NCBI GenBank assembly: GCA_050249355.1
Contig: JBFWQQ010000002.1
Location: forward strand, 1 to 59,512
Length of the DNA stretch: 59,512 nucleotides
Direction: 5' to 3'
Source: Alphaproteobacteria bacterium
Lineage (GTDB): Bacteria; Pseudomonadota; Alphaproteobacteria; Rickettsiales; SXRF01
Shown: positions 8,567-50,145 of the stretch, one piece after another
How the letters are laid out: every line of letters starts with the position of its first letter
Numbering within the stretch: the first letter of the stretch is position 1
Notes under the pieces: generated by a model
Seen by the model: only the letters and a program-made list of their open reading frames with translations
Databases searched by the model: none
Told to the model about the DNA's origin: nothing
Program-made: the position numbers and the translations under genes

Positions 8567-8639
8567 TATTGCCCCCGCGAGAACCTGCTGATTTTCGCAT
8601 GGGGCGCGCTGAAGGCTCGCTCGGTCAAATGACCTCGCC
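8567..8639 (+). repeat. 73-bp palindromic element, family R1, copy A (intergenic, after the neuC-like gene)
   Basis: The sequence tattgcccccgcgagaacctgctgattttcgcatggggcgcgctgaaggctcgctcggtcaaatgacctcgcc aligns along its full length with the copies at 25658-25730 and 47184-47256. Confidence 0.85.
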
Positions 8640-8660
8640 TTTAATTCTACGAGCGTATAC

Positions 8661-9695
8661 ATGAATATTATTCCTGCCACCGAAGGCACACGCTGGCATG
8701 CGCTGCTTGACCATTTCGACGCGGTGGACTGCACCTTTTTGCCCGAATACCATTTGGCCTATGCCTTGCGCATCAAAGATTCTACGCCGCTGTTGTGGTA
8801 TTTCGAACAGGGCGGCCAACACCTGATCTACCCATTCCTGCTTACTCCCGTTGAAGTGGCAGGCGAGCATACCGGTCATCACGATATAAGCAGTATCTAC
8901 GGCTATACCGGTCCGCTGGCCACCACGCAGGATGCGGCATTTCTTACCACAGCATGGCAGGCGTTCGATGCCTATACAAAATCCCAGTGCGTGATCGCTG
9001 AGTTCATTCGCTTCAGCCCGTTCAATGAAAACCATGTTATGGCACACCCGGCATGTACCGTGGAAGAGAACCGCCAGCTAGCCGTCTCCCGCCTGCCGGA
9101 CACCGAGGAAGAACTACTGCAAAGACTCGGCAGCAAAACCAGAAATATGCTGCGCAAAGCCGAAAAATCCGGCCTTGCTGCGCGCGAGTTGCCACTGCCG
9201 GAAAAGCTTTCTGATTTCCGCCTGCTCTATGATGAAACGATGGGACGCAATCAGGCGCCGGATTTTTTCTGGTATGACGATGAATATTGGAATGAGTTGC
9301 TGAAACTAGAGGGCGGGCTTCGCCTGTTTGGCACCTATAAGGATGATGTGCTGGTAGCCGCCTCCATGTCGGTGGTGCATGGTAGGTCTGCCTTGTATCA
9401 CCTGGGGGCCAGTTTAGTAGAGTTCGCACGGCAGGGGGCCGGAAACCTGAGCATGTATGAGATGTCCAAGGCTCTGATGCAATCGGGCGTGACCTTCATC
9501 AACATGACCGGCGGGCGCACAACAGCGCTGGATGACCCGCTGCTTTTATTCAAAAAAAGCAATGCAACCGGGCTGCATCCCTTCTATATTGGCAAGCGTG
9601 TAATGGATAATGCGGCATATCGGGAAGTGGCCGCCCTCTGGCAGCAAAAGACCGGCACGCCGCCGAATGCCAATAAAATAATATTCTGGAGATAG
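8661..9695 (+). CDS. FemAB-like / GNAT (Acetyltransf_6-type) acyl- or aminoacyl-transferase
   Basis: 344 aa. TRNMLRKAEKSGL, ALYHLGAS and a C-terminal FINMTGG segment resemble FemX/FemAB-like and BioF2-like GNAT proteins. This assignment comes from pattern recognition only. Confidence 0.55.
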   Translation: MNIIPATEGTRWHALLDHFDAVDCTFLPEYHLAYALRIKDSTPLLWYFEQGGQHLIYPFLLTPVEVAGEHTGHHDISSIYGYTGPLATTQDAAFLTTAWQAFDAYTKSQCVIAEFIRFSPFNENHVMAHPACTVEENRQLAVSRLPDTEEELLQRLGSKTRNMLRKAEKSGLAARELPLPEKLSDFRLLYDETMGRNQAPDFFWYDDEYWNELLKLEGGLRLFGTYKDDVLVAASMSVVHGRSALYHLGASLVEFARQGAGNLSMYEMSKALMQSGVTFINMTGGRTTALDDPLLLFKKSNATGLHPFYIGKRVMDNAAYREVAALWQQKTGTPPNANKIIFWR

Positions 9696-9697
9696 GT

Positions 9698-10750
9698 ATG
9701 GATTTCGTATCCAAACAATTCGATTTTAAGCCGGGCGAGCGCTGCATCGTCATCGGTGAGATCGGCGTGAACCATAACCGCAATGAAGAGTTGCTGTTTA
9801 AGCTGATCGATGCCGGTATCGAAGCGGGGCTGGACATCATCAAGCTGCAGCGCTTTATTTCCGAGGAAGAAATATCTAGCTTCGCCGCCTCCACAGATTA
9901 CCAGCAAAAGGCCGGCCAAGGCGACAACCAGCTGGAAATGGCCAAGAAGCTGGAGCTGCCGGATGAGTGGCTGGTCAAAGCTTTCCATTACTGCAAGGAA
10001 AAAGGCGTAGGATTTTTATGCACCGCCTTTGAAATGAGCAGCGTGGATTTTCTTGCTGACAAGCTGGGCGTGAGTGCGGTGAAGGTCCCCTCGCCTGAGA
10101 TCAGCAACAAGCCGCTGCTGCAATATATGGCCAAGCGTTTCGATAGTTTATTGATATCTACCGGCGCCAGCGATATGGATGAAGTAGCCCGCGCGCTCGA
10201 CTGGATAAAGCCGTATAACCGGGAACTGGCGCTGATGCATTGCCTGTCGGAATATCCGGCACCTATAGCGCAGGCCAACCTGAAAGCCATCGAGACCATG
10301 CGCGACAAATTCCAGTTGCCGATCGGTTATTCTGACCATACCGAGGGGCATGTGGCAGCGGTGGTATCTGCCGGCCTCGGCGCTGCCATGATCGAGAAGC
10401 ACTACACGCTGGATAAGAACCTGCCCGGACCCGACCACAAGGCATCGGTGGATATCGCCGAGCTGAAAGCGCTGGTGGCAGCGGTACGCGATGCCTCAGC
10501 CAGCTTGGGTGACGGCGTGAAAAAGCCGGTGGCGGCCGAACGCGCCAACCGTCCGCTGATACGCAAAAGCGTGGTATGCAATGTGAAGGAACTGCCACAA
10601 GGCACCACCATCACCGAAGACATGCTGGGTGTGAAACGCCCGTGGGTGGAAGGTGCGGTCGAGCCATTTGAGTTCGATAAGATCTGTGGTAAAAAACTGC
10701 GCAAGGCCAAACAGTATGACGAACCTATCCTGTGGGAGGATGTAGCGTGA
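9698..10750 (+). CDS. neuB: Nonulosonic acid synthase (NeuB/LegI/PseI family)
   Basis: 350 aa. GEIGVNHNRNEELLFKLIDAGIEAGLDIIKLQ is the NeuB TIM-barrel N-terminus. Also has HCLSEYPAP, GYSDHTEG and a C-terminal SAF-like domain. Confidence 0.9.
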   Translation: MDFVSKQFDFKPGERCIVIGEIGVNHNRNEELLFKLIDAGIEAGLDIIKLQRFISEEEISSFAASTDYQQKAGQGDNQLEMAKKLELPDEWLVKAFHYCKEKGVGFLCTAFEMSSVDFLADKLGVSAVKVPSPEISNKPLLQYMAKRFDSLLISTGASDMDEVARALDWIKPYNRELALMHCLSEYPAPIAQANLKAIETMRDKFQLPIGYSDHTEGHVAAVVSAGLGAAMIEKHYTLDKNLPGPDHKASVDIAELKALVAAVRDASASLGDGVKKPVAAERANRPLIRKSVVCNVKELPQGTTITEDMLGVKRPWVEGAVEPFEFDKICGKKLRKAKQYDEPILWEDVA

Positions 10751-11790
10751 CCAGAATCCTGTGTATCAGCCTCGGCAGTATTGGCAAGCGCCACTTGGGC
10801 AACGCGCGTGATCTGTTGCCGGATGCGAAGATCGCCGTGTGGCGTCAATATACCAGCCCCGATGGCAAGCTACCCGATGGAGCCGATATGTTGCTGGCCA
10901 GCCAGCAGGAGGCGATCGATTTCGCGCCGGATGCCGTGATCGTATCCTCGCCTGCCAGCGAACATATAAAGAACGCACTGCCATTCATTCAAAAGAATGT
11001 GCCGGTATTCATGGAAAAGCCGCTGGCCGATACGGCCGAAGACATCGACAGTTTCCTTGATGCCTGCAAACGCTCCACCGGCTTCATCATGGTAGGCTAT
11101 GTGCTGCGCTTCCTGCCCACGCTGCATGCGATCCGCAAGCTCATCCACGACGAGATGATGGGAACTATCTACACCGCGCATATTCAGGTAGGCCAGTACC
11201 TACCCGACTGGCGGCCCGATTCGGATTACCGCGAAGGCGTATCCGCCCAGAAGAAACTCGGCGGCGGCGCACTGCTGGAGCTCAGCCACGAACTGGACTA
11301 TGCTACATGGCTTTTCGGCTGGCCCAAGAGCCTGCTGGCCAGCTGCGCCAAGCTCAGCCCGCTGGACATCGACGTGGAAGACAGTGCACACGTAGTGCTG
11401 GAATATGGCGACAAGAATGTGGTGGTGCAGCTCGATTTCCTGCAGCGCGTCGCGAACATGGCCATGCAGCTGGTATGCGAGAAAGGCACGCTGGAAGTCG
11501 ACCTGATGAACGAACAGGCATGGTTCATCACTCCGGAATTTCCCGAAGGTGCCGAGCTGGAATATGGCAGCCTGCAATCGGGCAACGAGATATACCTGCG
11601 CCAGTTCGACTTGTTCTTTTCTAAAGCGCTTATGGATTACAAACCGCGCTATGCCGAAACCAGCGACTTTAACCAGTGGGCCGATATCGACCATGCGGCC
11701 AGTGTATTGAAACTCGTGGATCTGGCGAAGAAGGCCAGCAAAACCGGATCGCGCCAGAGCGTGGATTTTAAAAGGGCCAAAGCCGCATGA
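10732..11790 (+). CDS. Gfo/Idh/MocA family oxidoreductase
   Basis: 352 aa. An N-terminal Rossmann segment ILCISLGSIGKRH is followed by EKPLA. An alternative GTG start at 10747 gives a GTGA overlap with the neuB stop. Confidence 0.75.
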   Translation: MGGCSVTRILCISLGSIGKRHLGNARDLLPDAKIAVWRQYTSPDGKLPDGADMLLASQQEAIDFAPDAVIVSSPASEHIKNALPFIQKNVPVFMEKPLADTAEDIDSFLDACKRSTGFIMVGYVLRFLPTLHAIRKLIHDEMMGTIYTAHIQVGQYLPDWRPDSDYREGVSAQKKLGGGALLELSHELDYATWLFGWPKSLLASCAKLSPLDIDVEDSAHVVLEYGDKNVVVQLDFLQRVANMAMQLVCEKGTLEVDLMNEQAWFITPEFPEGAELEYGSLQSGNEIYLRQFDLFFSKALMDYKPRYAETSDFNQWADIDHAASVLKLVDLAKKASKTGSRQSVDFKRAKAA

Positions 11791-12506
11791 GTGGGTTCAC
11801 CGCATTCATATTCGCGCGTGGCGGCAGCAAAGGCGTACCGCACAAAAACATATTCCCGGTGGCAGAAAAGCCGCTTATTGCGCACAGTATCGAATCAGCG
11901 CTGGCCAGTCAATCGGTATCCAGAGTGGTCGTATCCACCGATGATGAGCAGATAGCAAAAGCCACTCAGGCCTATGGGGCTGAAGTGTTGCACCGTCCAT
12001 CCGAACTCGCTGGCGACACCACCGCCGAAGTGCTGGCATGGCGCCACGCGATCGAGAACCTGCCGGAGCTGTTTAGAAACAACGCCCAGCCGTTCATTTC
12101 ACTGCCGGCCACCTCGCCGCTGCGCGCGCCCGTAGATATCGATAATGCCATAGCGCGTTATAAAAAAAGTGACTGTGATATGGTGTTCGGAATTACGCCT
12201 TCCCACCGCAACCCGCACCTGAACATGGTGACTATAGATGCGAACGGCCACATCCACATCGCCATCGGCGGGTCGGACGCCGTGCGCCGTCAGGATGTGC
12301 CAGACATGTACGATGTCACCACCTGCGTATATGTCGGTAGCCCGGATTACATACGTGGGTGTAAGAAGCTTATGGAAGGCCGGGTCGGCTACGTCATCAT
12401 TCCTGCCGAACGCGCACTGGACATCGATAATTATTTCGACCTGCATCTTGCCGAACTGATGATCAAACACCCCTATATCGAACCGAAGAAAGTAAGAACC
12501 GCATGA
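11787..12506 (+). CDS. neuA: CMP-nonulosonate synthetase (acylneuraminate cytidylyltransferase family, NeuA/LegF-like)
   Basis: 239 aa. FIFARGGSKGVPHKNI is the CMP-sugar synthetase P-loop-like motif. ATGA overlap with the upstream gene. Confidence 0.85.
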   Translation: MSGFTAFIFARGGSKGVPHKNIFPVAEKPLIAHSIESALASQSVSRVVVSTDDEQIAKATQAYGAEVLHRPSELAGDTTAEVLAWRHAIENLPELFRNNAQPFISLPATSPLRAPVDIDNAIARYKKSDCDMVFGITPSHRNPHLNMVTIDANGHIHIAIGGSDAVRRQDVPDMYDVTTCVYVGSPDYIRGCKKLMEGRVGYVIIPAERALDIDNYFDLHLAELMIKHPYIEPKKVRTA

Positions 12507-13258
12507 GTCATGTTGCTGCGATAACCGGCGGGGCCGGACATTTAGGAAGCGCCTTTGCAAAGAAGCTGGCGGCACGCGGCGTGAAGATCGCCATCCTCGA
12601 CAAGAACGAAGAAACAGGACGAAAGCTGGCCGGTGAGCTTGGCAATGGCTGCGCCTTCATTTATTCCGACCTGATGGAGCCTGCGAGCTTCGGTACCATT
12701 GCAAGCGACATACAAAAAGAGTTCGGACGGCTGGATTACCTTGTGAACAACGCCGCGTTCTATGATGAAACCCCCGGCTGGGGCGTGCCCTTCAATGAAG
12801 AAGGCTACGAAGCGTGGGTGAAGGTGATGCGGGTGAATTTGCTGGCGCCATTCTTTTTAGTGCAGGCATTGCATCCGCTGCTGGAAAAATCCGGTGACGC
12901 GTCGGTAGTGAATATCGGCTCCATTTATGGCATGGTCGGCCCCGACCACAGCCTGTACGAAGGCACCACGATGACCAATCCCGCCGCCTATTCGGCCAGC
13001 AAAGGCGGGCTACTCTCGGCCACGCGCTGGTTGGCCACCGTGCTGGCACCAAAAGTGCGTGTGAACATGGTATCGCCCGGCGGCATCGAGCGCGGACAAA
13101 ATGAAATATTCAAAGAGCGCTACCATAGACGCACACCGCTCGGCCGCATGGCCACCGAAGCGGATGTAGCAGGCATGGTGTCGTTCCTGCTGTCACCGGA
13201 ATCAGCTTATATCACCGGCCAGCACATGGTGATTGACGGGGGATGGACGGCATGGTGA
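12503..13258 (+). CDS. SDR family NAD(P)-dependent oxidoreductase
   Basis: 251 aa. Has ITGGAGHLGSAFAKKLAARG (TGxxxGxG), NNAA and YSASKGG (YxxxK). Confidence 0.85.
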   Translation: MSHVAAITGGAGHLGSAFAKKLAARGVKIAILDKNEETGRKLAGELGNGCAFIYSDLMEPASFGTIASDIQKEFGRLDYLVNNAAFYDETPGWGVPFNEEGYEAWVKVMRVNLLAPFFLVQALHPLLEKSGDASVVNIGSIYGMVGPDHSLYEGTTMTNPAAYSASKGGLLSATRWLATVLAPKVRVNMVSPGGIERGQNEIFKERYHRRTPLGRMATEADVAGMVSFLLSPESAYITGQHMVIDGGWTAW

Positions 13259-13989
13259 GCACCGCAACCGCGCAGGCGAACACACTGGCCGCTTATGATG
13301 CCATCGCGCCGCTATACGAGAAATATTCGGAAAAATACCGCAACTATTTAAATGCCGTTGATGCGCTGGTGATCGAACGGCTACGCCCCGGCATGCGCCT
13401 GCTGGATGTGGGTTCCGGTGACGGCCGCCGCCTGAAAAAAATCACCACGCACCATGGCATAAAGGATGTGGTGTCGGTGGAACCAAGCCTGAACATGGCC
13501 GAAATATGCCGCAAAAGCACCGGCTTTGATGTGTACACGCTATGCGGCGACCAGATCGGCACGCTGAACGAAGCACCGTTCGATGCGGTGACCGCGCTGT
13601 GGAACGTATTCGGCCACATGGCGGATTCTGGCGTGCGGCTGGCAACATTACAGGCGATCGCGCGGAAAATGAAACCCGACGCCATCATGATACTGGACGT
13701 CAACAACCGCCACAACCAGCTGGCGTATGGCCGCTGGAACGTGATGAAGCGCCGCGTGGTCGACGCGCTGGCATTTGATGAAACACGCGGCGATGCATAT
13801 TACGATTGGGAAATCGAAGGGCAGTGCTTCCCGGCATCTGGCCACCTGTTCACCCCGGCGGAAATGCAAAAGCTGTTCCGGCAGGCCGGGCTGGAAGTCA
13901 TTGAGCGCCGCTCGGTGAATTACGCCACCGGAAAAATATCCGACTCCCTGCTCAACGGCCAGCTGTTCTTTGTGTTGAAAAAAGCCTGA
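13243..13989 (+). CDS. Class I SAM-dependent methyltransferase
   Basis: 248 aa with motif I LLDVGSGDGRRL. The alternative ATG at 13252 gives an ATGGTGA overlap with the SDR stop. Confidence 0.8.
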   Translation: MDGMVSTATAQANTLAAYDAIAPLYEKYSEKYRNYLNAVDALVIERLRPGMRLLDVGSGDGRRLKKITTHHGIKDVVSVEPSLNMAEICRKSTGFDVYTLCGDQIGTLNEAPFDAVTALWNVFGHMADSGVRLATLQAIARKMKPDAIMILDVNNRHNQLAYGRWNVMKRRVVDALAFDETRGDAYYDWEIEGQCFPASGHLFTPAEMQKLFRQAGLEVIERRSVNYATGKISDSLLNGQLFFVLKKA

Positions 13990-15288
13990 TCACTTATCGT
14001 GCCACACGGCGTGGCGGAGCTTCCACTGGCCGCTATCGTATTTCCACAGGTGCGGCGAGCGGAATTCGTCGCACAACTTATCGAAATATGCACGGGTCAT
14101 GATGGGCTGCTCGAATTTCGCCACAATATCCTTGCCGAACTCCTTCTCGCGGATCGACATATATTCGAACACCTCTTTTTCAAAGCGGTGCGGATATTCG
14201 CCGTCGAACTTCTTCACCAGTGCCACGCCCTCATCGTAATCGATGTCGCCGGAACGGATCTCCTGCGAGGCATCATAGGTGGCACGGCCGATACCGAACT
14301 TGATGAAGGTGGTGTAGTAGTGGAAATCATCGACCTTATCATCGATGGAATTATATTTGGAATAGGTACCCAGCGTGCGCTCCGGCGCCGCCTCGAAGTC
14401 GCCGTGCTCCACTGCATAATAATACGCACTTTGCGGGTGCCATTTCACATAGTGGCCCAGCCAGTGCACTTCGATTCCTTTTTCATCGCACAGCTGCGGG
14501 TCGATCGGCATGTAAGGCTCGAAATCTGCTGGTTTAAATCCGAAATCCTGCTTCAGCTCGGCAAATGAGGTGCCGCTTAAGAACACATCGTTATCGTCCG
14601 ACATGGTGAAATATTCGAACTCTTTGAAATCGCGCTTGGAACTTTTGTTGTGGGCAGCCGAGTTACCATATTCCGCTCCGGACTCGCCGTAGAAGATCAG
14701 CTTAATATCGAACAGCGCCGCCATCTTGGCCGCCAGGTGACGCTGGCCGATGATGAACGGCTGGAACGGGTGCAGCAGGCGCTCGGTGGCAAGGCGCGTC
14801 AGCAGGCGATGCGTGCGGCCGTTGGGGGTAACGAGATGGTTATCGAAACCCGAATGGATCCATTTATTGAAATTGCGCCAGCCCCAGTCGGTGTAAATAT
14901 GCGGTGCCCATGTGACGGTGAGCGGATTCATGCCGTATTTGTATTTTAAGAGATGCGTCTGCATGAAGCTGTCCTTGCCGCCGGAGCCAGGTACCAGACA
15001 GTCATACGAGCCGTCCTTGGAACGGTGCTTATCGAGCAGATCCATCAGCTCTTTTTCGCGCTCCTCCCAGTTCACCGACTGTTTCCAGTTCTTGGTGCGG
15101 CAGGCATCGCAGATGCCATCAGTAAATGCGATCACTTCTTTTTTGGTTTCGCGCGTGTGTTTCTGCTCAATGGTGGAATTAGGCCGCTGGTTGGATATCA
15201 CGCAGGTCCTGCAGAAGGCCACGTCCTGAGGAAGGCCATAATAGGCCTCGTTCGGGCTGTCCGTTTCGTATTTGGCAAGGCTGCTCAT
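13990..15288 (-). CDS. N-acetyl sugar amidotransferase (WbuX / WbpG / PseA family, PP-loop ATP pyrophosphatase)
   Basis: 432 aa. An N-terminal Cys-rich segment (CRTCVISNQRPNS...CDAC) is followed by the PP-loop LVPGSGGKDS. This is typical of the LPS or flagellin acetamidino-forming amidotransferases. Confidence 0.8.
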   Translation of the reverse strand: MSSLAKYETDSPNEAYYGLPQDVAFCRTCVISNQRPNSTIEQKHTRETKKEVIAFTDGICDACRTKNWKQSVNWEEREKELMDLLDKHRSKDGSYDCLVPGSGGKDSFMQTHLLKYKYGMNPLTVTWAPHIYTDWGWRNFNKWIHSGFDNHLVTPNGRTHRLLTRLATERLLHPFQPFIIGQRHLAAKMAALFDIKLIFYGESGAEYGNSAAHNKSSKRDFKEFEYFTMSDDNDVFLSGTSFAELKQDFGFKPADFEPYMPIDPQLCDEKGIEVHWLGHYVKWHPQSAYYYAVEHGDFEAAPERTLGTYSKYNSIDDKVDDFHYYTTFIKFGIGRATYDASQEIRSGDIDYDEGVALVKKFDGEYPHRFEKEVFEYMSIREKEFGKDIVAKFEQPIMTRAYFDKLCDEFRSPHLWKYDSGQWKLRHAVWHDK

Positions 15289-16532
15289 AATAACTCCAGA
15301 ATGATGTCGGCGATCTTGGCCGCCGCCTGTTCCCTAGGCAACAACTGTTTAACCTTTTTATTAATTTTCTCAAGTTTTTTATCATCCTTCAGGGCACTGG
15401 CAATGGCAGCAACCAGTTCGCCATAGCTATTGACTCCCCACGCAATGCCCATGCTGGCCAGCGGCATATCGGCATGGAAATCGGCATCCAGTTGCAATAT
15501 TTTCTTTTCCATGATGGCCGCCTCCAGCCCCACTGTGGTGGTACGGGCGACCAGTAGATCGATATTCGCAAGCAATTCGTGTAGATTACATTCGGCTGTC
15601 AAGTATGCGCCCGGATGCGCATCCACCCAGCGGGCATAGAACGCCCTGTCCTGCGAAGGATGCGGGCGAACGAGGTATACGGCATCATTGGCAACGGTCG
15701 CGTTGTAGCACGCTTCCATCTCGCCTAATATCTCCTGCTGGGATTTGATGTGCGAACATTTCTTGATCGGATCCCAGTAGGCTGGCATATCGGCATGCAG
15801 TACCAGCGGCGCACCCCCTGCCTGCGGGAAATGCTGCTGTAGCCATTCTGCGTCTTTGTCTTTGGGCAAATCGAGTATCTTATCGAACGCCGGGTTGCCG
15901 GTGATGTAGCATTGACTGATGCGTTCATCGACCAGCCCATCGGCAATGAACATGTCTTTAGCCACTTCGTTCAGGAAGGTGATGTGCTGCGCCACCAGCG
16001 GATAATCGCCCAGCCCGGTAAAGAGGTCGGTCATGATCATGCTGGTGATGCCCTGCGCGTTGGCAGTGGCAATGGCGGCCGCTTCGCTGCGCGGCGAATT
16101 GGAGGTGATGACCATATCCGGCGCAAGATCAGCAAAGATACGCTCCATGATGGTAAGCGGATAAAAAGCGCGCCGCGATTGCTGCGCAAATAATTTTTCC
16201 GCTTCCTCCAGCCCCAGCCGGGTGACCAGGTCTTTAAAGCATAGGCCGAGATAGGCCACCGAGTCTTCCAGATCGATGCCAATAGTGGGCGAATGATGCT
16301 CGCGCGCCAACCGCCTGCCCCACTCCAGCGCATCGGCATCTTTTTCCTTATCGAGATAATCGTTAAATCCCAGCGGTTCGATGCCGTTTGCTTTCAGCGT
16401 ATGTTTGGCCGCCGGCAACCCCAGCACATGAACGGTGAGCGCATCGGTTCTTTTACGCAGTGCGTGTACCACCGGGTAGACCATGTGGGCATGGCCGCCG
16501 CCATAGGTAACAAACAGGAGATTTTTTTTCAT
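15285..16532 (-). CDS. GT-B / 2-epimerase-fold-like protein of unknown specificity (candidate nonulosonate transferase)
   Basis: 415 aa. Has MKKNLLFVTYGGGHAHMVYPV (a G-rich N-terminal loop as in MurG-like or Epimerase_2 folds), NSPRSEAAAIATANAQGI and ITGNPAFD. The start and stop overlap neighbouring genes by 4 nt on each side. Confidence 0.45.
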   Translation of the reverse strand: MKKNLLFVTYGGGHAHMVYPVVHALRKRTDALTVHVLGLPAAKHTLKANGIEPLGFNDYLDKEKDADALEWGRRLAREHHSPTIGIDLEDSVAYLGLCFKDLVTRLGLEEAEKLFAQQSRRAFYPLTIMERIFADLAPDMVITSNSPRSEAAAIATANAQGITSMIMTDLFTGLGDYPLVAQHITFLNEVAKDMFIADGLVDERISQCYITGNPAFDKILDLPKDKDAEWLQQHFPQAGGAPLVLHADMPAYWDPIKKCSHIKSQQEILGEMEACYNATVANDAVYLVRPHPSQDRAFYARWVDAHPGAYLTAECNLHELLANIDLLVARTTTVGLEAAIMEKKILQLDADFHADMPLASMGIAWGVNSYGELVAAIASALKDDKKLEKINKKVKQLLPREQAAAKIADIILELL

Positions 16533-17473
16533 GTGTTACGTGAGGCCATCATCACGACGATCCGGTAATTGGGATCGGGGTGACGGGTTTTCAGGAGATT
16601 GGAGTAGGATACTGCATAACCCGCTACCTTCAGCATGGCAGGGTAATTGTGGATATGCATGAAATTACGGTAGATCACGCTGGGTTTTGGCTCATCGCTG
16701 AATTCATACGGCTTTCCGGTTTCCCAGCTGATACCGCATTGCTCCGCCAGCAGGATATGATCGAAACCAGACTCGGCGGCCTGGCGGTAGAACTGCAGGG
16801 CAAAATGTTCCGGCAGGCATGTCATCGTGCGGATATGCATGAGCAGCGAGCCATCCCAGCGCTGGCGTTTCATAAGTTCGAATATATCCGCCGCCTCAAC
16901 CTGCAGGTTCGGCAGGTCAAACAACAGGTCATTATACAGCCTGGTCAGCGGGGAGCGATCCACACCGATAAAGGTGGTTTCAGGGAATTCCTTCGCCAGT
17001 TCGGCGTCAACATACGCGTATGACACGCCGAAATTCAATGCATACGTCATTTTCTGGCTTTTTATCACACCGGATGCCACCCGCAACACCTCGTCATACA
17101 AATCGCCCGATTCGGTGCGCTGGGTGTTCCAGTTACCTTTTAGAATTTCCTGACGGTATTTTTCAGCTGCTCCCAACTCCTTGATCTGGCTTTCATAACC
17201 ATAGCCGGAATCCACCGATTGTGCATGGGCATCATTCCTTCCTGCTTTTCTCTGGGGCTGACAATATTCCTGCGTTATCCGGTAAGCGCGTTCCGTGTTG
17301 GCCAGCTTCGTCAGGTTTTTTATGAGAAATGCCAACGCCCTGGATGCTATAGGTACATGCACCAGTGTTCTGGCAACCAGCATCCGCAGGTAATGCTGCG
17401 CATACCCGGCTATTCCCACCTGCATGTTAAGATGGTCGTAGCCAACCTGCACTTGTCTGGATTCATTCATCAC
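16529..17473 (-). CDS. Hypothetical protein, possibly a degenerate methyltransferase fold
   Basis: 314 aa. YALNFGVSYAYVD...FIGVDRSP loosely resembles motif I and post-I of class I methyltransferases, but the Gly-rich loop is missing. Coding is supported by length and the 4-nt overlap with the downstream gene. Confidence 0.4.
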   Translation of the reverse strand: MMNESRQVQVGYDHLNMQVGIAGYAQHYLRMLVARTLVHVPIASRALAFLIKNLTKLANTERAYRITQEYCQPQRKAGRNDAHAQSVDSGYGYESQIKELGAAEKYRQEILKGNWNTQRTESGDLYDEVLRVASGVIKSQKMTYALNFGVSYAYVDAELAKEFPETTFIGVDRSPLTRLYNDLLFDLPNLQVEAADIFELMKRQRWDGSLLMHIRTMTCLPEHFALQFYRQAAESGFDHILLAEQCGISWETGKPYEFSDEPKPSVIYRNFMHIHNYPAMLKVAGYAVSYSNLLKTRHPDPNYRIVVMMASRNT

Positions 17474-24522: not shown

Positions 24523-24993
24523 CTACGCTGATTCTTTTATATGGGTACCGGTGGAACCGAACCCGCCTGCACTACGCTCGGTTTCATCCAGCGACTCTGC
24601 TGCTTCCCAGCGTGCATGCGTGACCGGCGCGATCACCATCTGCGCGATACGCATGCCACGCGTGACGGTGAATGGCTCATCATTCAGGTTGATCAGCAGC
24701 ACTTTCACTTCGCCACGGTAATCCGCGTCGATGGTACCGGGTGTATTCACCACCGAAAGCCCGTGCTTGAACGCAAGCCCCGAACGCGGACGAATTTGTG
24801 CTTCGTAACCTTCCGGCAGCGCCATGGCAAAACCGGTCGGGATCAGCTGGCGTTCCAGCGGAGCCAGCACGATATCCTGATGGTTGGCGGCCACCAGATC
24901 GCAGCCGGCGCTTTGCGAGGTTGCGTAATGCGGCAGCGGCAGGTCGTTGCCATGCTCTAGCTGGGTAATGCGGATGGAGATGCTTTTGGTCAT
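24523..24993 (-). CDS. dut: dUTP diphosphatase
   Basis: Has [26 protein letters not shown] and GGFGSTG motifs. The ATG at 24993 forms an ATGA overlap with the coaBC stop. Confidence 0.9.
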
Positions 24994-26300
24994 GATATGG
25001 CTTTTACTCGCTGCTGTGGGTTGCATAAGGTGAAGATGATCTTCTCCACCAGTTTTTGGGCCACCTGATGCTTCTGCATCAGCGGCCAGTACTCTTCGTC
25101 ACGTTGCGTGACCAACGTCACCTGGTTTTCCTGCCGGTCGAACACCGCGCCGCCGGAAACATCATTGGCCACGATCCAGTCGCAACCCTTTTTTTCCAGC
25201 TTGGCTTTGGCATTATCGATTAGCGCGTCGGTCTCGGCGGCGAACCCTATCACCAGCTTGGGACGGTTCGGGTGTTGCGCCAGCGTGGCAAGGATATCCG
25301 GGTTCTCACGCAGCTGCAATGATGGCACGCTGCCGGGCGTTTTCTTGATCTTGGATGTTGCTTCCTGCGCTTTCCAGTCGGCCACTGCTGCCGTGCATAT
25401 CGCCACATCGGCGGGCAGCGCCTCTTCGCAGGCATCGAGCATTTCATCGGCGGTGACCACTTCCACCAGCTTCACCCCGGCGGGCGCATCCAGCCCGGTG
25501 GGGCCGGACACCAGCGTGACGGTTGCGCCCTGACGCGCCAATTCCTCGGCCACTGCATAGCCTTGCTTGCCGGATGAATAATTGGTGATGTAACGCACCG
25601 GATCGATCGCTTCGCGCGTCGGGCCTGCTGTGACGAGGGCATGCTTACCTTGCAATGGATTGCCTCCGCGAAATTCTCCTGAATTTCGCATGAGGCGGGC
25701 TGAAGGCTCGCTTGGCCTGCTGGCCTCGCCTGAATATTCCTGCGTGGCTGGTGAAGGTTCAGACTTTGCCAACGCATGCAGCACGGCGGTCACGATATCA
25801 TCGACCTCAGCCATGCGCCCCTGCCCTTCCTCTCCGCACGCCAGCATACCGCTGCCGGGTTGGATGATGGTAGCACCGTCTTTGGTAATCTGCTTGATGT
25901 TGCGCTGGGTTGCCGGGGCTTGCCACATCTGCGTGTTCATGGCAGGGGCAACCAGCAGCGGCTTTTTGCTGGCCAGCAACGTGGCGCTGGCAAGATCACC
26001 CGCAAAACCATGCGCCATTTTGGCGATCAGGTCTGCCGATGCCGGAGCTACCACCACAAGGTCAGCCTCGCGCGATAAACGTATGTGCCCCATTTCCACT
26101 TCGTCCTTGAGTGAGAACAGTTCGCCATACACTGCGCTGCCGGAAAGGGATGCCACCGATAGCGGCGTAATGAACTCGGCGCCCCCCTTGGTAAGGATGC
26201 AGCGCAGCTCGATGCCACGCTCCTTGAGGCGGCGAATAAGGTCGAGCGACTTGTAGGCCGCTATCGAACCGCTGATGATGAGAAGTACGGATTTTGTCAT
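24990..26300 (-). CDS. coaBC: Bifunctional phosphopantothenoylcysteine decarboxylase / phosphopantothenate-cysteine ligase
   Basis: The N-terminal flavoprotein domain has [22 protein letters not shown] and PAMNTQMW. The CoaB domain has [27 protein letters not shown] chose the Met at 26300. The interdomain linker contains R1 repeat copy B. Confidence 0.9.
25658..25730 (+). repeat. 73-bp palindromic element, family R1, copy B (inside coaBC, translated in frame)
   Basis: The sequence is gattgcctccgcgaaattctcctgaatttcgcatgaggcgggctgaaggctcgcttggcctgctggcctcgcc. It contains the internal hairpin gcgaaatt/aatttcgc. On the minus strand it is read as [24 protein letters not shown]. Confidence 0.85.
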
Positions 26301-44428: not shown

Positions 44429-45322
44429 ATGACGCTTTTACCCTACGACGATCGCGACGGGATTATCTGGCTGGATGGGAACTTCGTGCCCTGGCGCGAG
44501 GCACAGACGCATGTGCTGACGCACGGGCTGCATTACGGCAGTTGCGTATTCGAAGGCGAGCGCGCTTACAGTGGCCATATCTTCAAATCGCGCGAGCACA
44601 GCCAGCGCCTGCATAATTCGGCCGAGCTGCTGGATTTTACCATCCCCTTTTCGGTGGATGAACTGGAAGACGCCAAGAAAAAGATACTCGCAAAAAACAA
44701 TCTGGTGAACGCATACATCCGGCCGGTCGCTTGGCGCGGCAGCGAAATGATGGCCGTATCCGCACAACAGGCTAAGATTCATGTCGCCATCGCCGCATGG
44801 GAATGGCCGAGCTATTTCAAAGGTGGTGCAAAAGAGCGTGGGCTGCGCCTGAAGCAATCCAGCTGGGTGCGTCCAGCGCCCAACATGGCTCCCACCGCCA
44901 GCAAGGCCGCCGGCCTGTATATGATCTGCACACTTTCAAAACATGCCGCCGAGCGTGAAGGCTTCGATGATGCGCTGATGCTGGATTATCGCGGCTTCGT
45001 AGCCGAAGCGACCGGCGCCAATATGTTCTTTTTGATGGATGGCAAGCTGCACACCCCTAACCCAGACTGTTTCCTGAACGGCATCACCCGCCGCACGGCC
45101 ATGGATCTGGCAAGAAAGCGCGGAGTAGAAATAGTAGAACGCCACATCAAACCCGAAGAGATAACCAAAGCCAGCGAAGTGTTCTTAACCGGCACCGCGG
45201 CCGAGATCACTCCGGTCGGCGAGATAAACGGCCACACCTTCAAGGTGGGTGACCTGACCAAAACACTGATGGAAGATTACGGAAAACTAGTGAACTCGGC
45301 ACCTGCCGCGCAGGTAGCTTAA
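44429..45322 (+). CDS. ilvE: Branched-chain amino acid aminotransferase
   Basis: 297 aa. Has HGLHYGSCVFEGERAY and a fold-type IV PLP enzyme pattern (GANMFFLMDGKLHTP, GITR). Confidence 0.9.
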   Translation: MTLLPYDDRDGIIWLDGNFVPWREAQTHVLTHGLHYGSCVFEGERAYSGHIFKSREHSQRLHNSAELLDFTIPFSVDELEDAKKKILAKNNLVNAYIRPVAWRGSEMMAVSAQQAKIHVAIAAWEWPSYFKGGAKERGLRLKQSSWVRPAPNMAPTASKAAGLYMICTLSKHAAEREGFDDALMLDYRGFVAEATGANMFFLMDGKLHTPNPDCFLNGITRRTAMDLARKRGVEIVERHIKPEEITKASEVFLTGTAAEITPVGEINGHTFKVGDLTKTLMEDYGKLVNSAPAAQVA

Positions 45323-45410
45323 CTTTTTATGCCCCTGTCAAAATCTACTGATTTTTACAGGGGACATCGTTCATGGCTGACTCGCACACCTGCGCTCGTA
45401 TAACAAAAAA

Positions 45411-45478
45411 GGAAGGCCAGCAGCCCGACCGAGCCTTCAGCACGCTTCATGCGAAATGCTATTCCTGCAAATGCTTCC
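45411..45478 (-). repeat. Family R1 palindromic element, copy C (reverse orientation), overlapping the pgsA 3' end. An adjacent partial copy lies at about 45372-45400.
   Basis: The reverse complement ggaagcatttgcaggaatagcatttcgcatgaagcgtgctgaaggctcggtcgggctgctggccttcc aligns with copy B. The pgsA codons WKHLQE and the stop lie inside the element. Confidence 0.8.
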
Positions 45479-46043
45479 AGCCGGTTTTGAAGTAAGCATA
45501 ACCGGTCACCAGCGTCAGTATGCCCGCGATCCACAGCAGGATGCGGCCCAGCACGTCGGCATGCAGCCCATCCGGCCCGCCCACGCCGAGCAGTAACAGG
45601 AATATCGCCACCATCTGCGCCGCCGTTTTCCATTTCGCAAGGCGCGACACCGGCACGCTCACCTGTATCTCGGCCAGGAATTCGCGCAGGCCCGAAACCA
45701 GTATCTCGCGGCAGACGATGGCAATGGCGGGAATAATATCAGCACGTATCACCGTGTCGCTGTTGGATTGCACCAGCAACATCAGCGCCGTCGCCACCAG
45801 CAGCTTATCGGCGATAGGGTCGAGGAAGCGACCGATGTTGGATTGGGCCTGCCACATGCGCGCCATGTAACCATCCAGCCAGTCGGTAACGCTGGCCAGC
45901 AGGAATATGCCCGCCGACAGCCAGTAGCCCCAATCACCCTTGATAAAAAACACCATGATCAACGCAGGAATGGCCCCGATACGGCCGTAGGTCAACCAGT
46001 TCGGCAGGTTCTTCTTCCATGCTGCGATATGCCCGTTGCTCAT
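45459..46043 (-). CDS. pgsA: CDP-diacylglycerol--glycerol-3-phosphate 3-phosphatidyltransferase
   Basis: 194 aa. Has the CDP-alcohol phosphatidyltransferase motif DWLDGYMARMWQAQSNIGRFLDPIADK. Confidence 0.9.
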   Translation of the reverse strand: MSNGHIAAWKKNLPNWLTYGRIGAIPALIMVFFIKGDWGYWLSAGIFLLASVTDWLDGYMARMWQAQSNIGRFLDPIADKLLVATALMLLVQSNSDTVIRADIIPAIAIVCREILVSGLREFLAEIQVSVPVSRLAKWKTAAQMVAIFLLLLGVGGPDGLHADVLGRILLWIAGILTLVTGYAYFKTGWKHLQE

Positions 46044-46101
46044 GCCTTATCCGGTTTTTTTGTTGGAACCGTCTCTTACCATGTCTGGCGGTGGGTTTCC
46101 A

Positions 46102-47988
46102 TCACTTTGTCTGGGCTATATCTTCAATATGCAGGCTAACAGAGCGTCGCCCCTGCCATTCGTTGCTGCGCATCTGCCCAACAAGGTCCACCGTCTGGCC
46201 CCGTGTGGCCAGCAGTGCCTCGCCCAATTTGGTGCCCACCGAGCGAAAGGCGATGGCAGACAGGCTGGCGCCGCCACTGGGGTCTTTCACATAGGTGCGG
46301 ATATGCGACTGGTCTTTGCCTATATACTCGGGCTTCATGTTGACTACGCCGCGCAGAACCACTCGTATGGAAGGATTCCCCTGTCCGAACGGCCCGATCT
46401 GCTCCAGCTTTTCGATCAGTTCGTCGGTGATGCCGCCGATATGCAGTTCGGCATCCAGCCTTATCACCCGGTTGCGGGTTAAAAGCTCCTGATGTTTAGC
46501 CGCGCGCTGTGCCATAAATTCCTTGAATGCTACTAGCTTACCGGATTCCACCGTAAAGCCCGCCGCCATCGAGTGCCCACCGCCAGCCACCAGCAAACCA
46601 GATTCACAGGCCGCGATCACCGCCGAGCCGATATCGAAGCCGCTCACCGAACGCGCCGACGCTTTACCTACGCCATTTTCCATGGCAATGACGGCTGTGG
46701 GTTTATTGAATGCTTCTTTCAGCCTGCCCGCTACGATACCGATCACGCCGGGATGCCAGTTCTCACCTTCCACCAGCAACACCAGCTGGTCGAGCTGCTG
46801 CTCGGCTTTGGCCATCGCTTCTTCTAGCACCATGCTCTCAATGGTTTTGCGTTCACTGTTGTGGGTGTCAAGTTGCAGCGCCAGCTGTTTCGCTATCGTA
46901 TCATCGCCGCAGGTCAGCAGGCGCACGCCCAGATCGGATTTTCCTACGCGCCCCCCGGCATTGATGCGCGGCCCCAGCACAAACCCGGCATGGAACACAC
47001 CCGGCGGCTGGTCGATACCGGCAATGTCGAGCAGCGTGCGGATACCAAGGTTCTGCCGTGCCGCCATCACCTTCAGCCCCTGCGCCACGAACGCCCGGTT
47101 CACTCCCGTCAGCGGCACCACATCGCACACCGTGCCGAGCGCTACCATATCCAGCCATTGCATGAGGTTGGGTGGAGGTATTTTATTGCCCCCGAAGTTT
47201 TCTGCTGAAAACTCCATGGGGCGCAGCTCAGGGCTGACTCGGCCTGCTGGCCTCGCTTCCTCATAAAATCCGGAAGTTCGCAACCTGCTATTCACCGCTA
47301 CAGCCAACAGAAATGATACGCCGACCGCTGCCATGTGGCCATGCGGCGAATCCTCATCCAGCCGATTGGGGTTTACTACTGCCACTGCCCTTGGCAGTTT
47401 GGCCTCGGCCTGATGGTGGTCGATCACGATCACATCCAGCCCGGCATCGGCGGCGGCAGCAAGCGGCTCGAATGCCAGCGTGCCGCAATCCACTGTGATA
47501 GCCACGTGTGCGCCCTGCTCTTTTAACTTCAGCAATCCGGCTGTGTTTGGGCCGTAGCCTTCGGTCATGCGGTCGGGGATGTAGACCAGCGGCGTAACGC
47601 CTATGCTTTGGAAAAACTGGCTGAGCACCGCAGACGAGGTGGCACCATCGACATCGTAATCGCCCCAGATGGCAATGGTTTCCTTGTTCTGTATCGCGCG
47701 CACGATACGATCGGCCGCCTTGTCCATATCCTTCAGGTGGAACGGGTCGGGTAGCTGCGATTTCAGGCTGGGATTGAGAAAATCCTCCACGTCATCTTCG
47801 GCGATACCGCGCGCCGCCAGAATGCGCGCCACAATCTCCGGCAGACCATAGCGCTGCACCAGCAGTGCCGCCTTGCGCTCGTCGGCTGCGCGCAGCAGCC
47901 ACTCGCAGCCAGTAAGTGACAAATGACCCGGTAATTCGATGACCCGATGACTCGTGTCAAAAGCTATGCTAGGTTCATTCTCCGTCAT
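46102..47988 (-). CDS. recJ: Single-stranded-DNA-specific exonuclease RecJ
   Basis: 628 aa. Has DHH motifs (IAIWGDYDVDGATS, ITVDCG, VIVIDHH, ALGTVCDVVPL) and DHHA1 (GGGHSMAAG). R1 repeat copy D lies between DHH motifs III and IV. The first ~20 codons lie in an R4 repeat. Confidence 0.9.
   Translation of the reverse strand: MTENEPSIAFDTSHRVIELPGHLSLTGCEWLLRAADERKAALLVQRYGLPEIVARILAARGIAEDDVEDFLNPSLKSQLPDPFHLKDMDKAADRIVRAIQNKETIAIWGDYDVDGATSSAVLSQFFQSIGVTPLVYIPDRMTEGYGPNTAGLLKLKEQGAHVAITVDCGTLAFEPLAAAADAGLDVIVIDHHQAEAKLPRAVAVVNPNRLDEDSPHGHMAAVGVSFLLAVAVNSRLRTSGFYEEARPAGRVSPELRPMEFSAENFGGNKIPPPNLMQWLDMVALGTVCDVVPLTGVNRAFVAQGLKVMAARQNLGIRTLLDIAGIDQPPGVFHAGFVLGPRINAGGRVGKSDLGVRLLTCGDDTIAKQLALQLDTHNSERKTIESMVLEEAMAKAEQQLDQLVLLVEGENWHPGVIGIVAGRLKEAFNKPTAVIAMENGVGKASARSVSGFDIGSAVIAACESGLLVAGGGHSMAAGFTVESGKLVAFKEFMAQRAAKHQELLTRNRVIRLDAELHIGGITDELIEKLEQIGPFGQGNPSIRVVLRGVVNMKPEYIGKDQSHIRTYVKDPSGGASLSAIAFRSVGTKLGEALLATRGQTVDLVGQMRSNEWQGRRSVSLHIEDIAQTK
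47184..47256 (+). repeat. 73-bp palindromic element, family R1, copy D (inside recJ, translated in frame)
   Basis: The sequence is tattgcccccgaagttttctgctgaaaactccatggggcgcagctcagggctgactcggcctgctggcctcgc. On the minus strand it is read as ARPAGRVSPELRPMEFSAENFGGN. Confidence 0.85.
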
Positions 47989-48016
47989 CCAGTCATCCAG
48001 TTATCGAGTTATCCAC
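47923..48016. repeat. Inverted arrays of tandem 8-mers (family R4) spanning the recJ / O-methyltransferase divergent region
   Basis: The left array is atgacccg gtaattc gatgaccc gatgactc. The spacer is 47954-47983. The right array is gtcatccag tcatccag ttatcgag ttatccac. The recJ ATG (47988-47986) and the methyltransferase ATG (48017) both abut or lie within it. Confidence 0.6.
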
Positions 48017-48670
48017 ATGTCACGCACTTTAACACCCGCCATCGACTATATCCGCAAGCTTTACGCACCGCAAGACGCGCTGCAGCAGGAAATCAACGCC
48101 ACACTGAAAGATATCGGCATGGAAATTCAGGTCGGCCCGGAAGAAGGCAAGCTGCTGGGCCTGCTGGTGAAAATGCACGGCGTAAAAACTATTGTGGAAG
48201 TGGGCACGCTGGGCGGCTATTCCACTCTGTGGATGGCACGCGCCCTGCCCGATGGCGGCCAGATCCACACGTTGGAGCGCGATGCCAGACATGCCGGAAT
48301 CGCACGCGGTTTTTTTGCAAAGTCGGATGTGGCAGACCGTATCACACTACACGAAGGTGACGCCACCCAAACGCTGGCATCCTTAAATGATAAAGGGCCG
48401 TTCGATATGATATTCATCGACGCCGATAAGATCAGCTACCCCACCTATCTCGACTGGGCAGAAGCAAATATCTGCAAAGGCGGGCTGATCGTGGCCGATA
48501 ACACTTTCCTGTTCGGCGCGGTGCTGCAGGATTCGCCACCGGAAGATGTCGCTAAATCTACATGGGAGAATATGCGCAGCTTCAATGCACGGCTTGCCGA
48601 CCCCGAAAAATATTACGGCCTGATCATTCCTACACAGGAAGGGTTGAGCGTAGCGGTGAAGTTGTTCTAA
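48017..48670 (+). CDS. Class I SAM-dependent O-methyltransferase (caffeoyl-CoA OMT / YrrM-like)
   Basis: Has IVEVGTLGGYSTLWMA, MIFIDADK and LIVADN. I prefer the ATG at 48017 over the GTG at 47954, which lies inside the repeat. Confidence 0.8.
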   Translation: MSRTLTPAIDYIRKLYAPQDALQQEINATLKDIGMEIQVGPEEGKLLGLLVKMHGVKTIVEVGTLGGYSTLWMARALPDGGQIHTLERDARHAGIARGFFAKSDVADRITLHEGDATQTLASLNDKGPFDMIFIDADKISYPTYLDWAEANICKGGLIVADNTFLFGAVLQDSPPEDVAKSTWENMRSFNARLADPEKYYGLIIPTQEGLSVAVKLF

Positions 48671-48674
48671 TGCT

Positions 48675-48698
48675 CCCTCCCCCCATTGGGGGAGAGGG
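48675..48698. repeat. GC hairpin repeat (family R3), between convergent genes
   Basis: The sequence is ccctcccccc att gggggagaggg followed by aaaaaaa on the plus strand. The related copy is at 8522-8550. Confidence 0.6.
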
Positions 48699-48710
48699 AA
48701 AAAAATGGCT

Positions 48711-49259
48711 TTAGAAATCTATCACCTTCAGCACGTCGTCAACCTTGTCGACCACGTTGAAAAACCCCTTCACCTCTTCTTTAGCAAAGTTGTTATCGAT
48801 GATGTTGTACATGAGTTTGATCAGCGGCGTCCAATATTCCTCGAAGTTGAATATCACCACCGGCTTGTTGTGCAGGCGCAGCTGCCGCCATGTGATGATC
48901 TCGAACATTTCGTCCATGGTGCCGAAGCCGCCGGGGAACACAATAAACGCATCCGATTTCTCGAACATTAGCTGTTTGCGCTCGTGCATGGTATTTACGA
49001 TGACGATCTCGCTTAAGCTTTGGTGCTCGTTCTCGATGTCGCGCAGCGATTCAGGGAATACGCCGGTCACGTAGCCGCCATTTTGCAGGCTGGCATTGGC
49101 CACCGCACCCATGACACCGCAATCACCCCCGCCGTATACGAGATTGATATTTTTTTGCGCCAGAATCTTTCCGAACGCACTGCCGATATCCAGAAACTTC
49201 TTGGGAACGTCATTAGATGCGCCGCAGAACACGCACACCGATTTGGGATTACTCATCAA
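48711..49259 (-). CDS. LOG family protein (TIGR00730-type nucleotide phosphoribohydrolase)
   Basis: 182 aa. Has VFCGAS, LVYGGGDCGVMG and PGGFGTMDEMFE. Confidence 0.85.
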   Translation of the reverse strand: MMSNPKSVCVFCGASNDVPKKFLDIGSAFGKILAQKNINLVYGGGDCGVMGAVANASLQNGGYVTGVFPESLRDIENEHQSLSEIVIVNTMHERKQLMFEKSDAFIVFPGGFGTMDEMFEIITWRQLRLHNKPVVIFNFEEYWTPLIKLMYNIIDNNFAKEEVKGFFNVVDKVDDVLKVIDF

Positions 49260-49330
49260 CTTCCTACAATTATTATTGCTTTTGATTGGTTTACCAGTTC
49301 TTATAATAACAAGGTAATAGTTATTTTTCT

Positions 49331-50107
49331 ATGAAAGATCCAAAAAATATAGTTATTACAGGTGCTAGCAGCGGCCTTGGCGCCGCCCTCGCCCGCTATT
49401 ACGCGGCGCCGGGCATCACCTTGCATCTGCATGGCCGCAATCATGCACGTATCGACGCGATCTGTGCGACGTGTCAGAAAAAGGGTGCCGTAACACATGG
49501 CTATGCCTGCGATGTGACGAATGCCGCCGCTATGGAAGATTGGATAAAATTCGCCGACACGCAAACACCGATCGACCTTGTAATCGCCAATGCCGGTATT
49601 TCGGCAGGCATCGGTGGTGGTGGCGAGAACGCCAACCAATCGCGCGCCATATTTGCTACCAACATGGACGGTGTGAACAATACCATACAACCGTTGATTC
49701 CCCGCATGTGTGAACGTGGGCGCGGCCAGATCGCGCTGGTCAGCTCGCTGGCGGGGATACGCGGCCTTTCGAGTTCGCCAGCCTATAGCGCCTCCAAAGG
49801 TTGGGCACGACTGTATGGCGAAGGGCTGCGCGGCTGGCTGAAGGATTTCGGCGTGCAGGTGAATGTGGTCTGCCCCGGCTTTATACGCACGCCACTCACC
49901 GATGTGAACCCGTACAAAATGCCACTCATCATGGAAGCAGACAAAGCTGCGCGCATCATCGCCGACGGCCTTGCGAAAAACAAAGCGCGCATCGCATTTC
50001 CAAAATTGCTCTACATTCCACTATGGCTGGTGAACAGCCTGCCCTACAGGCTGACCGAATGGTATTTTGACCGCATGCCAGCAAAACCTGCTTCGCCTGA
50101 GCTTTAG
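49331..50107 (+). CDS. SDR family NAD(P)-dependent oxidoreductase
   Basis: 258 aa. Has IVITGASSGLGAALA, NAGI and YSASKGW. Confidence 0.85.
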   Translation: MKDPKNIVITGASSGLGAALARYYAAPGITLHLHGRNHARIDAICATCQKKGAVTHGYACDVTNAAAMEDWIKFADTQTPIDLVIANAGISAGIGGGGENANQSRAIFATNMDGVNNTIQPLIPRMCERGRGQIALVSSLAGIRGLSSSPAYSASKGWARLYGEGLRGWLKDFGVQVNVVCPGFIRTPLTDVNPYKMPLIMEADKAARIIADGLAKNKARIAFPKLLYIPLWLVNSLPYRLTEWYFDRMPAKPASPEL

Positions 50108-50145
50108 ATTGCCTCCGCGATTTTCTCCTGCAAATCGCATGAGGC
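50107..50145 (+). repeat. Family R1 element, half copy E (hairpin half only)
   Basis: The sequence gattgcctccgcgattttctcctgcaaatcgcatgaggc aligns with the first 39 nt of copy B. It begins at the last base of the SDR gene's stop codon. Confidence 0.75.

Follow-up and report, generated by a model that had tools for sequence, protein, structure and literature searches.

Several kinds of short palindromic repeat are known to enter or adjoin bacterial genes. Rickettsia palindromic elements (RPEs), of which RPE-1 to RPE-10 have been distinguished, insert in frame into many unrelated genes (Ogata et al. 2000, 2002, summarised in PMC10969869). Repetitive extragenic palindromic (REP) families tagged with GTAG or CGTC lie mostly downstream of open reading frames (ORFs), with some copies in genes, notably replication and repair genes; the CGTC families predominate in Alphaproteobacteria and are without a dedicated transposase (PMC3733652). 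Here we describe R1, a hairpin-bearing repeat present six times in a 59,512-nucleotide (nt) stretch of alphaproteobacterial DNA with a G+C content of ~55% (contig JBFWQQ010000002.1, assembly GCA_050249355.1; hereafter the window). R1 is probably a selfish, non-autonomous repeat of the REP/RPE kind, dispersed in the genomes of a clade of uncultured freshwater alphaproteobacteria and also present in some of their phages. It has inserted repeatedly and independently, and copies have been gained, truncated and left to decay. An earlier sequence-only reading of the window had likened it to RPEs, and the likeness is supported as an analogy: R1 is dispersed, forms hairpins, lies in frame in genes and is missing from the closest RecJ orthologues.

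A covariance model of R1 trained on 24 copies and run over the window with its filters off returned exactly six significant matches, of 34.7 to 87.8 bits, the next-best score being 9.3 bits (Table 1). Five to six copies had been counted in this DNA, and the five that had been listed, A to E, were each confirmed in the sequence where they had been placed. What had been taken for a further partial copy at about 45372-45400 is the 3′ part of a full, degenerate copy, F. The pattern CATGRRGCGN{1,2}GCTSARGGCTSRSTYGG matches the window four times (copies A, B, C and D), against 0.00 matches expected by chance, and a repeat search also recovers R1 (its families D1, D2, D5, I1, I2 and I6). Copies F and C are arranged tail to tail. 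Rfam gave no match in the window at the gathering score, its one match over copy B being at chance level (E = 4.8), and a tRNA scan of the window found none.

Table 1 Copies of R1 in the window and the two genes that host a copy.
Feature	Coordinates	Strand	Remarks
R1 copy A, full length	8562..8640	+	model match 8562-8644, 77.1 bits; intergenic
R1 copy B, full length	25653..25731	+	model match 25653-25735, 87.3 bits; inside coaBC
R1 copy F, full length, degenerate	45323..45401, core 45329-45397	+	model match 45322-45405, 40.9 bits
R1 copy C, 5′-truncated	45413..45458	-	model match 45405-45483, 44.4 bits, mismatches in 5′ part
R1 copy D, full length, extra-base subfamily	47179..47258	+	model match 47179-47262, 87.8 bits; inside recJ
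R1 copy E, 5′ hairpin module (P1/P2) + AAAAAAACC	50108..50154	+	model match 50102-50173, 34.7 bits
coaBC, 436 aa, hosts copy B	24990..26300	-	TIGR00521, E = 2e-126
recJ, 628 aa (~590 aa in orthologues), hosts copy D	46102..47988	-	TIGR00644, E = 2e-165

In the aligned copies, the 5′ module of R1 consists of TTGCCYCCG, one arm of a variable stem of 7–9 bp, a CTNCTG loop, the complementary arm, and CATGRRGCG. It folds as a hairpin of ~40 nt, in which the outer GCYYC/GRRGC pairs form P1 and the inner stem forms P2. The conserved linker that follows, GCTSARGGCTG.CTCGG, exists in two versions that define subfamilies, of which one shows an additional base ahead of GCT. Beyond the linker, the CTNCTG loop of the 5′ hairpin recurs in a smaller hairpin, P4 (GGNC-TNCT-GNCC), and the core ends in CCTCG. 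Weak conservation extends into both flanks, where information content drops to background after 7 nt on the 5′ side (an A/T-rich tail) and after 4 nt on the 3′ side. The unit is therefore ~79–81 nt long; the 73-bp unit proposed earlier holds as a repeat but is too short as a length. Copy C has lost its 5′ third and keeps the 3′ arm of P2 and the entire 3′ half.

Base pairing in R1 is preserved while sequence changes. Across 32 copies, 89.9% of the stem cells hold standard pairs, compared with 36–48% when the partners are slid, and changes are seen on both sides in 15 of the 19 stem pairs; the compensatory hairpin changes that had been pointed out in the window are thus real. Individual copies also fold well when either strand is modelled as DNA, and folding z-scores lie between -2.8 and -5.5 in four of five copies (-5.5 for copy F, -4.9 for copy E). 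The stems are nearly all Watson-Crick, and their mismatches show no strand asymmetry (12 G-T and 19 A-C in 805 cells), for which reason a palindrome at the DNA level fits better than a selected RNA.

Two of the six copies lie within genes, in frame, antisense and in the same antisense frame. Copy B occupies the linker between the CoaC and CoaB parts of coaBC, and the NCBIfam coaBC model matches this gene in two stretches. Copy D is translated within recJ as EEARPAGRVSPELRPMEFSAENFGGNK. In an AlphaFold2 model of RecJ (mean predicted local distance difference test score, pLDDT, 83), the insert is a loop that joins two DHH-domain helices, and residues 249-267 within it score below 50; such low values in an otherwise confident model mark the insert as a tolerated loop. 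RecJ of the window is longer than its closest relatives, which measure 595–601 aa at 75%, 69% and 65% identity and are all without the R1 segment, and the DNA alignment at the empty recJ site is too divergent to define the exact ends of the element. The sequence-only reading had counted both hosts as essential genes: the two insertions stand, but recJ is not generally essential.

Related genomes show the same process at other stages and in other genes. R1 is intact at one linker position of coaBC in the window, in L037 (from the sample that also gave the syntenic relative L020) and in L039, where it belongs to the other subfamily; the 68% identical orthologue of L036 has lost the hairpin and keeps no more of R1 than a degraded piece of the 3′ half (..SESSARL..). 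The hemF gene has been struck at three different sites. One old, degenerate copy near the N-terminus is common to L002 and L029, whose hemF genes are 70% identical, and each of the two has in addition one well-preserved copy at a site of its own that is empty in the other. Elsewhere, R1 lies in frame in xseA (in the sense frame), in a MobA/MobL relaxase gene and in a GNAT acetyltransferase gene, the last with three units at an 81-nt period beside related repeats within the ORF. Copies with a TGA in the common antisense frame (the GCTCAAGGCT variant, ..PSQP*AR..) are all intergenic, and the genic copies are open, which is the expected signature of a selection filter: a genic copy survives only if its frame is open and the protein tolerates ~25–29 extra residues, as domain linkers and surface loops do. 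A census of invaded proteins with the peptide of the common antisense frame (a 27-aa query, doubled) gave 120 word candidates and no match at E <= 10.

The CoaC-CoaB linker and one RecJ loop are also insertion hot spots across relatives. Members of at least four unrelated repeat families have repeatedly entered these permissive sites in the clade, and their peptides are of the types R1, PLEGEG, VIPAQAGI..DSRLRGND (P0192) and ..ALAMT (P0226). Peptides of the PSPLEGEG or PLPxGEG type stand at the R1 site of RecJ in P0008, P0009, P0036, P0048 and P0058, and in the CoaBC linker of P0128 and P0142. Three further RecJ orthologues (P0012, P0022 and P0038) are 733–765 aa long and have PF04480 and PF18741, both endonuclease-like, between the usual RecJ domains, which suggests a larger mobile insertion in recJ.

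The remaining copies in the window are intergenic, and each of them adjoins or closely follows a stop codon. For A, E and F, the gene is co-oriented and the copy begins 1–19 nt past its stop. Copy A lies in a sugar-biosynthesis cluster, between a UDP-GlcNAc 2-epimerase gene (7362-8549) and an acetyltransferase-like gene (8661-9695); its core starts 19 nt past the TAG stop of the co-oriented epimerase gene and leaves 24 nt to the next gene. Copy F directly follows the TAA stop of a co-oriented class IV aminotransferase gene (44429-45322), a stop that is found at the orthologous position in L020. The homology of copy C begins directly after the pgsA stop codon (45459-45461). This copy had been thought to form a gene terminus, but the residues WKHL that precede it are ancestral, the L020 orthologue ending in WRYL*, and it therefore adjoins the gene end rather than clearly forming it.

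Copy E offers the cleanest comparison of a filled with an empty site. The earlier description of it as a half copy was right in that it is incomplete; it is a 47-nt insertion flanked immediately by two stop codons, the TAG that ends a short-chain dehydrogenase gene (49331-50107) and the one that ends astB (50155-51489, minus strand). In L020, whose RecJ is the 75% identical one, the two convergent stops adjoin directly (TAG-TTA), both protein C-termini are unchanged in the window, and the filled site shows no target-site duplication. L020 is without any R1 copy, so copies D, E, C and F are all absent there.

The same placement recurs beyond the window. Taking the longest non-overlapping ORFs as proxies for genes and removing duplicate loci, we found the R1 core 0–19 nt (median ~7) past the stop of a co-oriented gene at 15 of ~27 distinct intergenic sites. 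The spacing between the stop and the 5′ end of the core puts the A/T-rich tail of R1 directly against the stop, and the opposite orientation against a stop codon was seen in only one clear case. The adjoining stop is TAA or TAG in 14 of the 15, compared with a background of 60%, and comparison with L020 shows that these stops are native and not supplied by the element.

Further copies are spread over related genomes, metagenomes and phages. A pattern search of contigs representing one genome per species found 19 R1 loci in 12 assemblies; these are metagenome-assembled genomes (MAGs), one of which bears the label Caldilinea and the others Rickettsiales or Alphaproteobacteria bacterium. A further 12 metagenome contigs contain R1, as does a single IMG/VR viral contig that is identical to one of these contigs, and 45 distinct copies were collected outside the window. 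Copies B and D had no BLASTN match in plasmid or phage collections. Several matches lie near contig ends, as expected because repeats break assemblies. The sequence-only reading had named two observations that would speak against an inserted element, a scan that finds no further copies and the presence of the same segments in orthologues from distant taxa; more copies exist in related genomes, and distant orthologues are without the segment.

A phage-like contig encoding terminase, portal, capsid and tail tube proteins (L028, the same as L040 and IMGVR_UViG_3300031787_009444) carries R1 at 9959-10041, between the TAA stop of the capsid gene and a canonical intrinsic terminator. At a second phage capsid locus (L034/L025), R1 likewise follows the capsid gene. 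Phages may spread R1 between hosts, or may use it as a hairpin in the 3′ untranslated region (3′-UTR).

The match labelled Caldilinea (L019 6472-6555, CAYMQA010000002.1) is the one in frame in the MobA/MobL relaxase gene, and it comes from a study that also gave L007, a Rickettsiales MAG; a plasmid or conjugative element assigned to the wrong bin may explain it, or it may mark a route of horizontal transfer. Head-to-tail arrays of R1 occur in L009, L033, L005 and L027, and copies elsewhere are singletons, besides the F/C pair. The number of units varies between arrays at orthologous loci: downstream of infA, one copy and a stub are found in L031 and L018, and at least two copies and a stub in L033. 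Short stubs of the R1 5′ end often follow the last unit of an array.

Before R1 can be read as mobile DNA, other explanations of the same data have to be weighed. The idea that its segments are ancestral, fast-evolving linker or loop sequence, or a chance low-complexity likeness, has a negligible probability. The insertion sites are indeed variable linkers and loops at which many orthologues carry extra residues, but those residues derive from other, unrelated palindromic repeat families, and one and the same ~75-nt DNA is found in non-homologous genes as well as in intergenic DNA. Its occurrence in unrelated genes and its absence from the closest orthologues refute this reading. A classical miniature inverted-repeat transposable element (MITE), moved by an IS5- or Harbinger-type DDE transposase with duplication of a TAA/TWA target, so that the stop TAA is regenerated on insertion, is improbable. 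R1 has no terminal inverted repeats, its ends TTGCCYCCG and GGCCTCG being non-complementary and the A/T-rich similarities of its flanks inconsistent; no related insertion sequence was seen among the ORFs neighbouring R1; and its strong orientation bias is unexpected for a symmetric cut-and-paste element. Such an element would account for the near-exclusive use of TAA or TAG in the adjoining stops, for the TAA (or TAG) on both sides of five copies (F, L012, L013, L026 and L028), and for a TAA within 20 nt 3′ of the core in about half of the copies as counted by eye, although these flanking triplets lie at variable distances and are absent from many copies.

The main rival holds that R1 is chiefly a functional, cis-acting RNA of the 3′-UTR, whose two stable hairpins, in a role already suggested for REPs, would guard the upstream mRNA against 3′ exonucleases or influence its termination or processing, with the genic copies as by-products. 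We consider it rather unlikely as the principal explanation, and such a role could coexist with mobility. The stop-adjacent, co-oriented sites are where such an RNA would be expected, the copy of L028 would be transcribed given its place ahead of the terminator, and the second phage locus repeats that arrangement; yet most genic copies are antisense to their host gene, copies reduced to the hairpin or otherwise truncated exist, head-to-tail arrays stand inside an ORF, and close relatives dispense with copies at the same loci. Compensatory change that preserves structure also speaks for an RNA, but a selected RNA should show more G-U than A-C mismatches on the co-transcribed strand, which the counts given above do not, and the stems are almost purely Watson-Crick. 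As for termination, the P4 hairpin of copy C together with a flanking T-run scores as a terminator-like site for pgsA, whereas copies A, D, E and F do not, a U-tract after R1 is generally absent, and Rfam holds no match. Conservation of R1 in situ above that of its host gene, as in coaBC, is a further point in favour of a function. In the window, neither of the two convergent genes, aminotransferase and pgsA, has a terminator of its own (45303-45317, 45414-45430); the corresponding interval of L020 contains a 127-aa ORF and, by eye, an apparent intrinsic terminator after the aminotransferase gene.

The reading of R1 as a mobile, selfish repeat has to answer the coaBC comparison in turn, along with several negative results that weigh against it. 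The coaBC genes of the window and of L037 share 66% of their nucleotides and 44% of their third codon positions, while the 3′ half of R1 (39 nt) is 92% identical and the P2 stem is wholly different yet paired (CGAAATT/AATTTCG and GAGTTTT/AAACTC). The copy is too conserved for passive decay and calls for gene conversion, for renewed insertion at this very site or for a function. A mobilising gene did not emerge from a Pfam census of 126 ORFs within 3 kb of R1 copies, which returned housekeeping and phage structural genes and no recurrent transposase; nor did a scan of 30 window ORFs, or the list of genes for the remaining region, yield a transposase domain. Neither a GTAG/CGTC tag nor terminal inverted repeats were apparent in the flanks and the information content of R1, and no target-site duplication could be demonstrated there. 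Individual checks of 20 selected ORFs adjoining R1, and of the phage ORFs, likewise found no transposase.

If R1 is a selfish repeat, as we favour, its copying would depend on a trans-acting enzyme able to recognise, on one DNA strand, both the hairpin and its conserved single-stranded flanks. By analogy with known systems, the most likely candidate would be an HUH/tyrosine transposase of the RAYT or IS200/IS605 type. Such an enzyme would insert R1 in fixed orientation beside an asymmetric, TA-containing target, which would account for the position of the copies next to stop codons as well as for their orientation. The paired changes in the stems would then arise at the DNA level, by quasi-palindrome correction or by gene conversion between copies, and not by selection on RNA.

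A bolder version, which we put forward with considerable doubt, is that R1 forms a class of its own among REP-like elements, without a tag and with two hairpins, and that a putative hairpin-recognising single-strand DNA transposase directs it, strand-specifically, to the DNA 3′ of TAA/TAG stops. Concerted evolution (gene conversion or re-insertion at old copies), together with carriage by phages and conjugative elements, would keep it near-identical across bacteria with ~60–65% protein identity. If true, the in-frame decoration of proteins would be a by-product of active targeting and not of random insertion. Selfish DNA in coding genes has been known mainly from Rickettsia and some REP families; irrespective of this version, R1 adds freshwater alphaproteobacteria that are G+C-rich, apparently free-living and known only from metagenomes. 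Its association with stop codons and its orientation bias give a handle on how repeats of the RPE and CGTC types, for which no transposase is known, are mobilised, and the strand-specific placement beside stops and the homogeneity across species are the features worth following. Because R1-like repeats fragment MAG assemblies, add length to predicted proteins and give rise to spurious ORFs, the covariance model helps annotation.

Other sequences in the window deserve brief mention. A second repeat family occurs at 5145-5224 and 57383-57520, in versions of 80 nt and 138 nt that are both intergenic and have the inverted termini CGTCATYGCGAGCG ... CCTCGCAATGACG; it looks like the CGTC-tagged REP superfamily of PMC3733652. 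The CoaBC linker of P0226 includes translated sequence of this type (..RHAPSALAMTK), and L029 has a copy at ~1141-1225. Immediately upstream of copy A, a single-copy G/C-rich quasi-palindrome, CCCCACCTGTCCTATCCCCCTTGAGGGGGGAGGGTTAGGATGGGGGTG (8505-8560), encodes the C-terminus (..PPVLSPLRGEG*) of the epimerase ORF, a peptide that resembles the PSPLEGEG and PLPxGEG types seen in RecJ and CoaBC of relatives. On the minus strand at 13993-17473, three consecutive ORFs of 432, 415 and 314 aa in a polysaccharide/nonulosonic-acid cluster have no Pfam match at E <= 0.01.

Compared with described families, R1 is closest to RPEs in behaviour. Both are dispersed hairpin repeats found in frame in unrelated housekeeping genes with one frame strongly preferred; both insert in loops and linkers, proliferate and then decay, occur with several families per lineage and have no known transposase. 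Unlike RPEs, R1 measures ~80 nt and not 100–150 nt, is G+C-rich and resides in environmental MAGs of free-living type with ~55% GC rather than in AT-rich, obligately intracellular Rickettsia. Its architecture is not one long palindrome but a 40-nt hairpin followed by a conserved linker and a small second hairpin, and its strong stop-codon adjacency, orientation bias and head-to-tail arrays also set it apart. No RPE-named NCBIfam model, from a library presumed to include RPE domains, matched CoaBC or RecJ at E <= 1.

With REP sequences of the REPIN-RAYT system, R1 shares short stem-loops, a variable stem whose structure is kept and conserved unpaired flanks. Like REPs, it lies mostly downstream of ORFs, between co-directional or convergent genes, is unevenly distributed among related genomes, and has some copies in replication and repair genes (recJ and xseA in the case of R1); like the CGTC families, which predominate in Alphaproteobacteria, it showed no associated transposase among the ORFs scanned. 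It differs in having no GTAG/CGTC tag and no CCA tail, the stem feet reading TTGCCYCCG and CATGRRGCG, without GTAG, CTAC, CGTC or GACG, in alignments of 24 and 32 copies. In addition, R1 is composite (two hairpins and a linker of ~25 nt) and longer than the usual 20–40 nt, the head-to-head dimers in which REPs are usually arranged were not seen, and no RAYT gene was seen near any copy.

The ends of IS200/IS605 elements and of their miniature derivatives, PATEs, which are moved by the Y1 HUH transposase TnpA, have subterminal hairpins on one strand and no terminal inverted repeats; IS200/IS605 elements insert in fixed orientation 3′ of a short asymmetric target without duplicating it. The likeness of R1 to these elements is architectural only, since neither a TnpA/TnpB gene nor a defined cleavage tetranucleotide was found for it. 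The MITE-like 3′-UTR repeats QMITE2 of Coxiella and SPRITE of pneumococcus have terminal inverted repeats or a terminator-like U-tract (PMC10969869), and R1 has neither, save for copy C by its context. By its peptides, as compared with RPEs through protein-family models, its missing tags, its composite unit and its lack of head-to-head dimers, R1 falls outside the RPE and REP families, but it behaves as they do; it is therefore a new family of the known REP/RPE kind, RPE-like in behaviour and without apparent sequence relationship to RPEs.

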